Shown here: in pieces, positions 31,191 to 50,004 of the stretch | Position numbering within the stretch: the first letter of the stretch is position 1 | How the letters are laid out: every line of letters starts with the position of its first letter | DNA from: Eledone cirrhosa | Lineage: Eukaryota | Assembly: GCA_964016885.1 (NCBI GenBank) | Contig: OZ024742.1 | Coordinates: 308,636,001-308,700,000 of the forward strand | DNA: 64,000 bases | Reading direction: 5' to 3' | Notes under the pieces: generated by a model | Database searches by the model: none | Told to the model about the DNA's origin: nothing | Seen by the model: only the letters and a program-made list of their open reading frames with translations | Made by a program: the position numbers and the translations under genes

Positions 31191-31949
31191 CCTCATGTCA
31201 CAATTACTACCATCCGGAATTGTTGAACATACGCTCGTAATGAGCGTTATTGCAATAATTTATCCAACCCTTGCTAGCAGGGAATATGGATAATAAATGA
31301 TGATGACGATGATAATAATGTTAGTTTCAGATACTGATAGTGACAACCCAAAAATACTATAATCAATAGTTTTTGTCGACCATACTTTGAGTTGGCCAAG
31401 TGGTTATTTCAGGCTTGTACTTATTCTATCGATATAGATATACATTGTATTGCGTGGCTAACTATATGTCTTTTCAACAGAATACCTGATATTTAACTGA
31501 TGACATATACCGGGCACAGGCACATAAACACACACACACACATACACACACACACACTCACACATATTTATATATAGAAAAAGAAGTCTTTTTCTTCATA
31601 TATATATGTGGAGGGGGAGGCAATAAAAACACGCGCACCAGTTGTTTAAGTTCAGTGTTGAATTTTTAAAATCATTACTCCGGGTATGGTGCCTCACTGG
31701 TAAATATAGAAGTGGACATCCTATCCACATACCGCGTAGACGCAGTGGATAGACAGGCAAAAGAGGCTATCTGAACTGGTGAAATTAAACACCCCCTTGA
31801 TACTAGCTATTTCGCTACACAGGTTTGGGATTTTTTCATACTGAATAAGGAATTATGTCTCTCAGGTTAATATATATATATACATATATATATAATATGA
31901 GAGACGTAAAATAAGAAAATTATAAAATTAACTTACTTACTAAAATATC

Positions 31950-32031
31950 ACTTCCAACTAATTAGTTTCTGGAATAGAGTAAATATATTTTCCGAAGAAG
32001 ATATATAGAAACATTCCGTCGTCAGGGAAGT
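31950..32031 (-). ncRNA. Type I hammerhead ribozyme motif (family A)
   Basis: Reverse complement of 32891-32972. Confidence 0.75.
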
Positions 32032-32890
32032 CTATTCTCAGCTAAGTTTCCAGGCAAAGAGAGGACTCTGGAAACTTATTAAAAAATAATTCAGTGGATA
32101 GGAAATAGCAAAGCGTGGACTGAATTCCTAGCCATTGAGAAAATCACTGCCTCTGCGTCTGTGGCAAATTCAAAAAGAATCAATCACGTGACATCGAGGT
32201 CAATCAGTGGAAAGTGGTTTGCTAATAAGACAGCGGCCTGCCTACTACCATAGCAGCAGTCATGGCCAATATTGCTCGACAAATAATTTGGAGATAATTA
32301 TAAAGAATTAATATCTAGTAACATATATATACATACAGATGCATATCAATGCTAGCAAATATATAGGTTTTGTCTTAGTAACATTGTGGTTCAATGCATG
32401 GGGTTGCAGAACAATAATATGAGAGACGTAAAATAAGAAAATTATAAAATTAACTTACTTACTAAAATATCACTTCCAACTAATTAGTTTCTGGAATGGA
32501 GTAAATATATTTTCCGAAGAAGATATAGAGAAACAATGTTACTAAGACAAAACCTATATATTTGCTAGCATTGATATGCATCTGTATGTATATATATATG
32601 TTACTAGATATTAATTCTTTATAATTATCTCCAAATTATTTGTCGAGCAATATTGGCCATGACTGCTGCTATGGTAGTAGGCAGGCCGCTGTCTTATTAG
32701 CAAACCACTTTCCACTGATTGACCTCGATGTCACGTGATTGATTCTTTTTGAATTTGCCACAGACGCAGAGGCAGTGATTTTCTTAATGGCTAGGAATTC
32801 AGTCCACGCTTTGCTATTTCCTATCCACTGAATTATTTTTTAATAAGTTTCCAGAGTCCTCTCTTTGCCTGGAAACTTAGCTGAGAATAG

Positions 32891-32972
32891 ACTTCCCTGA
32901 CGACGGAATGTTTCTATATATCTTCTTCGGAAAATATATTTACTCTATTCCAGAAACTAATTAGTTGGAAGT
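32891..32972 (+). ncRNA. Type I hammerhead ribozyme motif (family A)
   Basis: ACTTCC-CTGACGA-C-GGAAT...ATTCC-A-GAAA-CTAATTAG-TT-GGAAGT: stem I 6 bp, intact core, palindromic stem III, GUU cleavage triplet. Confidence 0.75.
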
Positions 32973-33598
32973 GATATTTTAGTAAGTAAGTTAATTTTAT
33001 AATTTTCTTATTTTACGTCTCTCATATTATTGTTCTGCAACCCCATGCATTGAACCACAATGTTACTAAGACAAAACCAATATATTTGCTAGCATTGATA
33101 TGCATCTGTATGTATATATATGTTACTAGATATTAATTCTTTATACATATATATATATGTATATGTATATATATATATATATATATATATATATATATAT
33201 ATATATATATTATATATATATATATAATAACTAGATAATCACAGGAGATAATTTTTGCTCGCGTGTAACCACACATAGCTAGTATAGGTAATATTTACCT
33301 TTAAGAGTGATTAACCTTCCTTGTATATATCCCATTAAAGAAATATATTTCACCAATTAATCAGATGGTAAGTCACGGAAAGTGGATATTATTGGATTGT
33401 CAACAAGGAAAGTGTAATAATGTCCAGCTATTCGTCCTTACAGAATGAGTTCAAATGTTCATCTAGCCGTTACCACGTGTTGTGTCTACACAAGATAACG
33501 ATTTCGTTTCAGTGGCGTGAATAGGTATTCGACAATTAGAAATAGCAGTCAAATTCTCTTCAACAGGAATAGCTCTACAATTAAGGAGCCGTATATAT

Positions 33599-33872
33599 AT
33601 ATCTAAATCCAAAATTAAGATAAAATAAATTAAATGAATTTAATCTAAATCGAAATTATGGGTGTCATGTCATAATGCATGCGCCATATATCCTGGAAAT
33701 TAAGCTCAAAGATAAATCTGAGCATATTATAATAACTAGTTATTATAATATGCTCGAATTTATCTTTGAGCTTAATTTCCAGGATATATGGCGCATGCAT
33801 TATGACATGACACCCATAATATCGATTTAGATTAAATTCATTTATTTTATCTTAATTTTTGATTTAGATATA
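33599..33872. repeat. ~270-bp near-perfect spacerless palindrome in (TA)n
   Basis: Centre ACT|AGT at 33737/33738; arms are reverse complements with few mismatches. Confidence 0.9.
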
Positions 33873-33973
33873 TATATATATATATATATATATATATATA
33901 TATATATATATATATATATATATATATATATATATATATATATATATATATATATAAAACTGATCTATATTAT

Positions 33974-34036
33974 ATTTTATCTGATGAAAGCGTACCATAA
34001 TTTGCTTTGGTGTCCTTGAAATATGTATAATGAAAT
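33974..34036 (+). ncRNA. Type I hammerhead ribozyme motif (family C-like)
   Basis: ATTTTAT-CTGATGA-AAGCGTACCA...TGGTGTCCTT-GAAA-TATGTA-TA-ATGAAAT. Confidence 0.65.
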
Positions 34037-48446: not shown

Positions 48447-48680
48447 ATAAATGAATAAATACATACACAAGAATAATAACAACAAACACATATAAACACA
48501 CACTAGTAAACTAAGATAGAATACAATAACCAATACACAGTCATCCAAACACGATCACACATCAAACACTATACACACACGCAAACGCATGCGCAGAGAA
48601 GACAAAAAAAAAATAAATAAACAAACTAAATAAAAATGGCGTAGGCATACAATACAACGGGAGGAAACATAATAGCACGA

Positions 48681-48722
48681 CTGAAGATGTTGCAGATGTG
48701 CAACGAAAACGAAAGAACTTTG
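48681..48722 (+). ncRNA. Degenerate hammerhead-like motif in Penelope 3' tail (family F); relatives at 44567-44608 (-) and 50131-50168 (+)
   Basis: CTGAAGA-T-GTTGCA-GATG-TGCAAC-GAAA...GAACTTTG, sense to the ORF; stems I and III are weak. Confidence 0.45.
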
Positions 48723-49188
48723 TTAGACTATATATATGTGTTTGTGTCTATATTATATTTGTATTTTTTACCGTTGGTCAGTCAATGGTAACATTGAGGA
48801 CCGAATAAATTAAATTAACCGATATAAAAGACTCAGAAGCGAAAACCAACCAAACAGTGAGTATGTTCTGTTATTAATTCTGGCAATATTATCACACAAA
48901 TATGACCCTCCACATATATTAACATATATATATATATATATATATATATATATATATATATAGAGAGAGAGAGAGAGAGAGAGAGAGAGAGAGAGAGAGA
49001 GAGAGAGAGAGAGAGAGAGAATTAGTATATTTACCAACATATGCGTACAGATGTACACTAATGCTAGCAAATACATAAGTTATGTCATAGTACCTAGGTG
49101 GTTCTATGCAGGGGGATGCAGAACAATTATATGAAAGATGTAAAATAAGAAAGTTTTAAAAATTAAAAATTAACTTACTAAAATTTTC

Positions 49189-49270
49189 ACTCCAACTAAT
49201 TAGTTTCTGTAATGGGATAAATATAGTTACGCAATGTAACCATCGAGAATTCATTACGTTATCAGGGAGT
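49189..49270 (-). ncRNA. Hammerhead motif (family B), core mutated to CTGATAA
   Basis: ACTCC-CTGATAA-C-GTAATG...CATTAC-A-GAAA-CTAATTAG-TT-GGAGT on the minus strand. Confidence 0.55.
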
Positions 49271-49722
49271 CTATTCTCAGCTAAGTTCCCAGGCAATGCG
49301 CGGACACTAGGAGCTCATATAAAAATAATAATTCGGTGGATGGAACAGCTAGCGGGGACTGAATTCCATAGCACTGAAAAAGTTCACTGTCTCTGGTCAA
49401 GTGGCAGATTCTAAAGAATCAATCACATGACACTGAGGCTAGTCAGTAGGAGTGGGATCGTATTATGACAAGAGCCTACTACCACTACGATGAATTAGCA
49501 GTGGATTTGGCAAGTTTGCTCAACAAATAAATAATTTGGAGATAAATATAGAGAATTAGTATATTTACCAACATATGCGTACAGATGTACACTAATGCTA
49601 GCAAATACATAAGTTATGTCATAGTACCTAGGTGGTTCTATGCAGAGGGATGCAGAACAATTATATGAAAGACGTAAAATAAGAAAATTTTAAAAATTAA
49701 AAGTTAACTTACTAAAATTTTC

Positions 49723-49804
49723 ACTCCAACTAATTAGTTTCTGTAATGGGATAAAGATAGTTACGCAATGTAACCATCGAGAATTCATAACGTCATCAGG
49801 GAGT
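49723..49804 (-). ncRNA. Type I hammerhead ribozyme motif (family B), intact core
   Basis: ACTCC-CTGATGA-C-GTTATG...CATTAC-A-GAAA-CTAATTAG-TT-GGAGT on the minus strand. Confidence 0.72.
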
Positions 49805-50004
49805 CTATTCTCAGCTAAGTTCCAAGGCGTAATGAATTCTCGATGGTTACATTGCGTAACTATCTTTATCCCATTACAGAAACTAATTAGTTGGAGTGAA
49901 AATTTTAGTAAGTAAGTTAATTTTTAATTTTTAAAATTTTCTTATTTTACGTCTTTCATATATATATATATATATATATATATATATATATATATATATA
50001 TATT

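Follow-up and report, generated by a model that had tools for sequence, protein, structure and literature searches.

Non-coding hammerhead ribozyme units of Penelope type in the genome of Eledone cirrhosa: paired 3' ends and 5' ends at the predicted cleavage site

Two two-armed insertions

The window analyzed here, 64,000 nucleotides from Eledone cirrhosa (assembly GCA_964016885.1, contig OZ024742.1, positions 308,636,001 to 308,700,000 of the forward strand), contains two insertions, A and B, composed of tandem units with hammerhead ribozymes. Insertion A spans positions 31892-33145, with a unit period of 522 in the left arm and 524 in the right arm, and B spans positions 49017-49962, with a period of 534. 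Each consists of two arms joined head to head, with the 3' ends facing outward into (TA)n, and (TA)n/(AG)n tracts surround both. Each insertion carries three hammerheads, one of which is truncated by the inversion junction. A and B are 75-76% identical across the whole unit (76.4% in an alignment of 649 nt). There is no ATG frame of at least 40 aa inside A, and only one, of 41 aa, inside B. Thus, a preliminary description of this DNA was accurate with respect to coordinates, periods, homology and stem sequences, and both insertions are non-coding, as it stated; the partial head-to-tail repeats with an inversion in microsatellites that it reported can be refined to two head-to-head arms in (TA)n/(AG)n. 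The arms, each ending at a short or a long 3' site (see below), and the flanking tracts are:

31892..32535, minus (hammerhead sense on minus): left arm of A; unit 465-522, a whole 522-bp unit, then 1-64; short 3' site in (AT)n
32533..33145, plus: right arm of A; unit 91-522, then 1-179; long 3' site in (TA)n
49017..49828, minus (hammerhead sense on minus): left arm of B; unit 434-534, a whole 534-bp unit, then 1 to ~180; long 3' site
49828..49962, plus: right arm of B; unit 470-534, then 1-66; short 3' site in (AT)n; junction-truncated hammerhead at 49829-49897
33142..33226, no strand: (TA)n flank of A; left flank at ~31869-31893
49958..50003, no strand: (AT)n flank of B; left flank at 48924-48962
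48962..49020, minus: (CT)29 at the long 3' site of B; slippage as reverse transcription starts is the likely source, the template having two CT units

The hammerhead ribozyme

The hammerheads are of type I, with the core elements CUGANGA, GAAA and UH, helices I-III and an open helix I. In helix I, A has ACTTCC/GGAAGT and B has ACTCC/GGAGT; the core GAAACTAATTAGTT is common to both. Helix II consists of 6 bp, an internal loop of 6-7 nt and a distal hairpin; an unpaired base follows A9 and, atypically for a hammerhead, an extra A precedes G12.

32891..32972, plus: complete type I hammerhead of A; helix I ACUUCC/GGAAGU, core CUGACGA...GAAA, bipartite helix II, palindromic helix III; predicted cut after 32966
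31950..32031, minus: second complete type I hammerhead of A
32472..32535, minus: junction-truncated hammerhead of A, CUGANGA half absent
49189..49270, minus: hammerhead of B; core change CUGAUAA, G8 to A
49723..49804, minus: hammerhead of B; core intact, U-U mismatch in helix II
32883..32888, plus: GAGAAU; may form a tertiary contact with UUCUC of the internal loop of helix II

One type I hammerhead per monomer had been proposed previously, and full cores and helices are indeed found, although one of the three in each insertion is cut short by the junction. Neither of the complete B hammerheads in the window is typical of its family, and because both are damaged, the B locus is a poor choice for bench tests.

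All subfamilies of the unit (see below) share CUGANGA, the unpaired base, a 6-bp helix II closed by a G-C pair, the internal loop, a distal hairpin of variable sequence, the extra A, GAAA and the palindrome CUAAUUAG; the core nucleotides are held even though the subfamilies are only 67-90% identical. Among 24 representatives, 96.6% of the alignment cells pair and 24 cells show two-sided change; neither value was reached in any of 500 shuffles, and slid controls pair in 31-59% of cells. One pair of helix II occurs in four variants (AU:10 UA:8 GC:4 CG:2) and another in two (GC:12 UA:9), and at least 5 independent double changes were counted in this helix on a tree built without the hammerhead. 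Helix I was lengthened stepwise by an inserted pair, from ACUCC/GGAGU, via a bulge and a G-U pair, to ACUUCC/GGAAGU. The compensatory change that a comparison of the A and B stems had indicated therefore holds across the family. In helix III, a 10-bp duplex between two copies has a predicted energy of −9.0 kcal/mol, the alternative being a weak 3-bp hairpin (+1.5). The candidate GAGAA/UUCUC pseudoknot is conserved in 138 of the 182 hammerheads, with a single compensated lineage. In Rfam, nothing in the window reached the gathering score, and no hammerhead family was listed up to E = 1 when 4 loci were compared, likely due to the long helix II; for this atypical hammerhead, which Rfam misses, the naturally occurring subfamilies provide covariation data that can be used directly.

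Downstream of the hammerhead of family A, a conserved GTAAGT is located 16 nt past the cut and TTTGCTAG ~110 nt further on (32980-32987 to 33085-33092, plus strand), a combination that could be a candidate intron similar to those in Penelope 5' untranslated regions. The sequence CACGTG at 32730-32738 is also conserved.

Genome-wide radiation of the unit

The host genome is 3.0 Gb in size and microsatellite-rich. A genome-wide search with both monomers, as the preliminary description had suggested, yielded 1,979 and 3,788 candidates by DNA similarity, the best of them 94-99% identical. Core-pattern matching identified 10,434 + 494 = 10,928 intact cores genome-wide, compared with 0 and 1 in mirrored controls, which excludes a chance origin of the cores. 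Core patterns that specified a different helix III or a short helix II recovered nothing beyond mutated copies and a handful of unrelated matches, and scans of metagenomes and viruses with the core pattern gave 0 matches.

At 90% identity, 103 natural whole units form 22 clusters, one of which is a deleted outlier. This outlier aside, the units are 507-571 bp long; identity between clusters is 67-90% and the GC content is 0.32-0.36. A and B are two of ~21 subfamilies in one radiation, not two special families: the divergence reported for them earlier (75-76%) stands, whereas their status as a separate pair does not. Homology among the ~21 subfamilies extends over the whole unit, in which compensatory changes occur throughout, and sense-strand folding of the units beats shuffled sequences in 6 of 6 cases (z from −2.6 to −8.5, 15 shuffles each).

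Tandem arrays without an intervening open reading frame (ORF) reach 12 or more units, and the unit-unit junctions are seamless in nearly all copies. Three long arrays (L086, L087 and L164) show shared, periodic or interleaved unit variants; in a further array (L088), the direct units differ at 0-3 sites and the inverted unit has 9 variants. The long arrays are not clean rolling-circle copies, and their shared, periodic variants point to growth at the DNA level or to multimeric templates. A ~483-bp tandem repeat common to several loci adjoins family A copies (L089:2812-4279, 8741-9725 and L150).

Two fixed 3' ends and their pairing

Ends were typed automatically in 88 insertions, at loci for which an intact core was the sole selection criterion; the division of a few complex loci into insertions was imperfect. 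The 3' ends fall at a short (~+61) or a long (~+177) position from the predicted cut, with a tail of ~115 nt. The insertions comprise 33 short+long, 1 long+long and 1 short+short copies, 11 two-armed copies with an odd end, 21 single short, 20 single long and 1 other. Thus, 33 of the 35 fully typed two-armed copies combine one short and one long end, whereas independent choice would give half hetero pairs (p = 2 × 10−8). This end pairing is new here and matches the two reverse-transcription start sites of Penelope.

The insertions show partial tandem repetition, a head-to-head inverted arm, variable 5' truncation, two fixed 3' ends and an AT-rich or microsatellite target, i.e. the anatomy of Penelope-type insertions. 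In PMC11167929, a Poseidon protein was shown to nick AT-rich DNA on both strands and to start reverse transcription at two internal sites that define the tail; the tail is present on one of the inverted repeats (PMC3846280). Given that the short+long pairing is nearly strict, that two internal start sites are known biochemically and that one inverted repeat bears the tail, we infer coupled twin priming at two nicked target strands. On average, opposite arms are closer within loci than between loci (1.9 vs. 3.5% divergence in 12 B loci and 1.5 vs. 2.2% in 6 A loci), which fits a single template but is not decisive. Of the B-type long ends, 20 of 28 carry 3-29 CT units, and 14 of 15 internal copies have two; the extra units likely result from slippage at initiation.

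5' ends at the predicted cut site

We then counted 5' ends as copies with foreign flanks at set offsets from the predicted cut, in raw counts that include a few internal deletions and duplicated loci. In the B/C lineage, there are 19 upstream ends over 2 bases (−15, −14; 9.5 per base), 24 over 3 bases (−9 to −7; 8 per base) and 36 over 4 bases (−6 to −3; 9 per base), compared with 111 over the 3 bases at the cut (−2 to +1; 37 per base) and 86 over 4 bases just downstream (+3 to +6; 21.5 per base). The peak at the cut site is significant both vs. upstream (p = 7 × 10−15) and vs. downstream (p = 1 × 10−4) positions. Exact palindromic junctions with both arms starting at +1 occur at 18 loci, compared with 1 in the control. 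All 18 were inspected and 17 are elements, of which 12 consist only of +1..short plus +1..long (one is interrupted), 3 have an extra unit on the short arm and 2 are broken off.

In the remaining lineages, there is a weaker, ~2-2.7-fold excess at the cut site (111 vs. 41, a hand count in which about a quarter of the 111 comes from a subfamily missed by the control); a count dominated by the GGGAGTG subfamily was left out of the totals. In family A, the peak is unclear (30 at the cut vs. 22 upstream vs. 30 over four bases downstream; p = 0.17). A cut-site footprint that differs between lineages is new here, and a literature search, with Repbase/Dfam and supplements outside its scope, found no description of a genomic 5'-end peak at a Penelope-type hammerhead. 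The distribution of ends in these sequences suggests that the ribozyme likely cleaves in vivo, but only partially and to an extent that depends on the lineage. This agrees with PMC11167929, in which the main substrate is uncut RNA.

Search for an autonomous Penelope partner

The neighbour of B is a 5'-truncated Neptune-like copy with one stop, from a very large family (35,858 candidates, with intact frames of 1,213-1,217 aa), pieces of which are found at three places in the window:

46536-48929: the truncated Neptune-like copy
44305-44678: Neptune-like family piece
50005-50085: Neptune-like family piece

The closest named protein to the main Penelope frame of the window is from Octopus vulgaris (68% identical). 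The Neptune-like family has its own terminal repeat of 480-550 bp with a different hammerhead-like core (CUGACGA-U-GUUGCA...GAAAG), two 3' ends ~60 nt apart and the ORF start (MTLPKYNN) within the repeat end; this terminal repeat has no detectable similarity to A/B. B is inserted in (TA)n between two Neptune-like 3' ends, and the proximity of A/B to their Penelope neighbour is explained by the (TA)n target common to both. The neighbour is rejected as the parent, given its unrelated terminal repeat; only 1 of 29 other copies carries a fragment, itself unrelated. Its protein may nevertheless act in trans. Thus, of the earlier proposal that A and B are non-autonomous ribozyme retroelements mobilised by the neighbouring Penelope, the non-autonomous Penelope-type character is retained and the neighbour as parent is not.

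Nor is the unit the terminal repeat of two Poseidon-like families: it was present at 0 of 29 copies in one and at 1 of 19, on the opposite strand, in the other. Two Poseidon-like fragments fused in sense to units (L118, L101) were dismissed as one-off joins, the other copies of these families being without the unit. Among 70 GIY-YIG loci in 8 clusters, no unit was attached in sense, and the 2 matches were both on the opposite strand. The possibility, raised previously, that some A/B copies are attached to a Penelope ORF thus failed in the Neptune-like, the Poseidon-like and the 70 GIY-YIG loci sampled, where none is a terminal repeat. Pfam has no family for the four Penelope proteins tested. 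No similarity to a pseudo-long terminal repeat (pLTR) of an autonomous family was detected in the families sampled, with Repbase/Dfam outside the scope. The anatomy of the insertions, together with established knowledge of Penelope, suggests a Penelope-type enzyme acting in trans.

Proposed mechanism

The best explanation, and in our judgement a highly probable one, is that a Penelope-type reverse transcriptase and endonuclease acts in trans on a non-coding unit of 507-571 bp, using nicked (TA)n as primer at two fixed positions in the RNA, and that the hammerhead cuts only a minority of the templates. Tandem loci would give rise to multimeric RNA in hammerhead sense, and the two nicked target strands would prime at ~+61 and ~+177 in one coupled reaction, of which the observed end pairing would be the result. 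Because most copies run through the cut site, the usual template would be the uncut multimer or a re-ligated circle. A few per cent of copies stop at the cut, sometimes in both arms, presumably at a self-cleaved 5' end. An internal strand predicted to pair across the junction may keep the ribozyme mostly off or hold the cut ends together, and long arrays would grow further at the DNA level.

Several observations weigh against this explanation. The peak is unclear in family A and weaker in the remaining lineages than in B/C; an estimated ~98% of copies cross the cut site, and the excess at the cut site amounts to ~2% of the crossings. Isolated hammerheads fold with weak z values (−0.6 to −2.1). 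The C-A or A-A mismatch at the base of helix II and the extra A before G12 may slow cleavage; among retrozyme dimers in bioRxiv 10.64898/2026.07.22.740005, 8 of 9 showed no cleavage in vitro. At only 7 of 12 B loci and 2 of 6 A loci are the two arms closer to each other than to any other locus. Finally, no autonomous partner was found among the families sampled, the sampling covering a few hundred of the ~11,000 cores.

An internal strand and a circular template

32706..32721, plus: internal strand of A that complements both sides of the cut junction and is predicted to act as splint or blocker; repeated at 32201-32216, minus
49439..49454, minus: corresponding internal strand of B, likewise complementary to both sides of the junction

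When the units of 18 subfamilies are folded as a consensus, this strand, which lies at ~+255 to +275, roughly midway along the unit, is predicted to bridge the junction by base pairing while the scissile base stays unpaired. Over its 14 pairs, 95.2% of cells pair in the 18 subfamilies, compared with 28-52% in slid controls. As modelled, the strand is a viroid-like conserved feature that is new here; it suits ligation or protection of a circle and, equally, repression within a multimer. According to PMC7229834, plant retrozymes and viroids typically block the junction in this way, whereas most animal retrozymes do not. The prediction that a strong predicted splint goes with the lack of a cut-site peak holds for A but not cleanly for the other lineages, so that there is only a trend.

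The main template could instead be a covalently closed, unit-length circular RNA (~520-570 nt), formed when the hammerhead cleaves and the ends are ligated on the internal splint, and copied by rolling-circle reverse transcription. We consider this alternative, a form of which the preliminary description had raised, tenable but somewhat doubtful, and compatible with most of the explanation given above. Circular RNAs have been demonstrated for coral, mussel and axolotl retrozymes (PMC7229834). The +1 to +6 half of the pairing is the most GC-rich among 29 conserved runs of at least 6 bp; in circular folding, the strand captures +1..+5 at P ≥ 0.83 in 9 of 18 units, and helix I forms at ≤0.01 in 18 of 18. 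The seamless unit junctions also agree with circles. However, splint covariation is confined to one event (A lineage, 2 cells), with a score reached by 53 of 500 shuffles; the variants in the arrays L086, L087, L164 and L088 are unlike one pass round one circle; and copies with both arms starting at the cut require a linear 5' end.

Alternatives without cleavage or independent spread

A structural or vestigial hammerhead that does not cut in vivo, with the pile-up of 5' ends caused by stalling of the reverse transcriptase on RNA structure or by a transcription start, appears improbable. The lack of a peak in family A, the large majority of copies crossing the site and the 2-fold rise of ends at +3 to +6 are compatible with it, as is the lizard element, in which cleavage is dispensable in vitro and needs protein and no RNA-seq reads ended at the cut (PMC11167929). 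However, the step lies sharply at the scissile bond, there is no excess where the enzyme would meet the stronger helix II (−15, −14), palindromic junctions start exactly at +1 on both arms, and the core is held across the divergent subfamilies. Transcription start at the initiator-like TTAGTT was rejected as the source of the peak: its A is at −4, yet −6 to −3 has no excess.

Less probable still is that the units are solo or tandem pLTRs shed by an unsampled autonomous Penelope-like family and do not spread independently: partial tandems, inverted arm, tail and (TA)n target are indeed pLTR anatomy (PMC8557442, PMC3846280), Xenopus retrozymes derive from pLTRs (bioRxiv 10.64898/2026.07.22.740005) and the sample covered a small part of the cores, but ORF-free arrays reach 12 or more units, no sampled Penelope family uses the unit as its terminal repeat in sense, the whole unit is common to ~21 subfamilies and shows compensatory changes throughout, and variant core patterns recovered little beyond mutated copies.

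Going beyond trans priming with partial cleavage, a wider interpretation is put forward only tentatively, namely that this cephalopod retrozyme radiation spreads via a viroid-like, self-blocked circular or nicked-circular RNA, and that its copies could be the first fossil record of a Penelope-type hammerhead cutting its reverse-transcription template in the germline, of integration by obligatory twin priming at two fixed RNA sites, and of telomerase-like slippage writing new microsatellite at an insertion end.

Other repeats in the window and genome

A third, unrelated two-armed hammerhead element lies at 45866-46513 of the window, with a 658-bp unit, a hammerhead at ~46338 (minus), the same bipartite plan of helix II and the helix III palindrome CCATGG; it has 2,372 candidates genome-wide and no attached ORF in 20 loci. 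Further hammerhead-like cores, with helix III palindromes CAATTG, CCGATCGG, CTAG and CCGG, were seen at L153, L301, L109/L149, L312, L325, L344 and L365, near Penelope-like endonuclease frames or in tandem repeats, and there are many such families in the genome. Near-perfect palindromes at 50501-53396 (2.9 kb, 91%) and 33592-33878 (0.29 kb, 94%) are probably head-to-head Penelope-type insertions.

The window also contains a (TTTTTCA)142 array of 99% purity (55082-56077) and a pyrimidine-rich minisatellite of 3.3 kb whose higher-order period is 454 bp (35356-38677). We take positions 57340-61142, with gag-like, protease, reverse transcriptase, RNase H and integrase motifs in several frames, to be the coding region of a Gypsy-like long terminal repeat (LTR) retrotransposon, and 16947-17810 (minus) is presumably a reverse transcriptase fragment of an RTE-like long interspersed nuclear element.

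Comparison with known systems

A and B consist of non-coding tandem units with one type I hammerhead each, at least two of them consecutive, that are dispersed in many copies, low in GC and within the range of 51-972 bp. Elements of this kind have already been described as non-LTR retrozymes, i.e. non-autonomous Penelope-like elements (PMC7229834; bioRxiv 10.64898/2026.07.22.740005). The preliminary description did not recognise a described family: the kind is known, but no description of the family itself was found in the literature on octopus hammerheads and Penelope, although Repbase/Dfam annotation may exist. The plant LTR retrozyme, with a type III hammerhead in LTRs, a primer binding site (PBS), a polypurine tract (PPT) and a 4-bp target duplication, is ruled out by the type I topology and the tandem units, no separate search for PBS or PPT having been made.

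The metazoan non-LTR retrozymes of PMC7229834 likewise have non-coding tandem units with one type I hammerhead each, a GC content of ~35%, thousands of copies, no LTR, PBS or PPT, and a proposed Penelope-dependent mobility. Their units are shorter (170-400 bp vs. 507-571 bp here), and they differ from the present elements, which are mostly two-armed insertions of 1-2 units with fixed ends and a predicted junction-blocking strand. The retrozymes of Li, Clavereau and Pollet (bioRxiv 10.64898/2026.07.22.740005) are also non-autonomous and Penelope-like, with units of 51-972 bp and proposed local array growth at the DNA level; they come from vertebrates, insects and one coral, with no cephalopod in the text available, and the analysis there does not extend to start sites, end pairing or 5' ends. 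pLTR relatives exist for 24 of 57 Xenopus families in that work, whereas no parent was found here.

The minimal hammerhead of Penelope pLTRs (PMC4209133) shares the unpaired base after A9, the G10.1-C11.1 pair, the long helix II and the palindromic helix III, whereas the extra A before G12, which the available text does not mention, the bipartite helix II and the possible 3-bp hairpin of helix III distinguish the present ribozyme. Penelope-like pLTRs have the same partial tandem with an inverted arm, the optional tail on one inverted repeat and the microsatellite target (PMC8557442, PMC3846280); unlike them, A and B are without an ORF and have a tail of ~115 nt rather than 30-40 nt (PMC4209133, PMC8557442, PMC3846280). 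The Anolis Poseidon element PAc (PMC11167929) has two internal start sites downstream of the hammerhead, nicks and extends both AT-rich strands and uses uncut RNA as the main template. It differs in being autonomous, in showing no strand bias between the start sites in vitro, compared with one of each in 33 of 35 copies here, and in that no in vivo trace of cleavage was found for it.

The role of the hammerhead in Penelope-like elements remains open in the literature: PMC8557442 describes it as unclear, PMC4209133 as unsupported by in vivo evidence and PMC11167929 as dispensable in vitro. With ~11,000 cores in ~21 subfamilies, insertion ends become countable. The gain over these systems is mechanistic detail within a known class, not a new kind of system, and both the cut-site footprint and the short+long rule can be tested in vitro and in any genome with Penelope-like elements.

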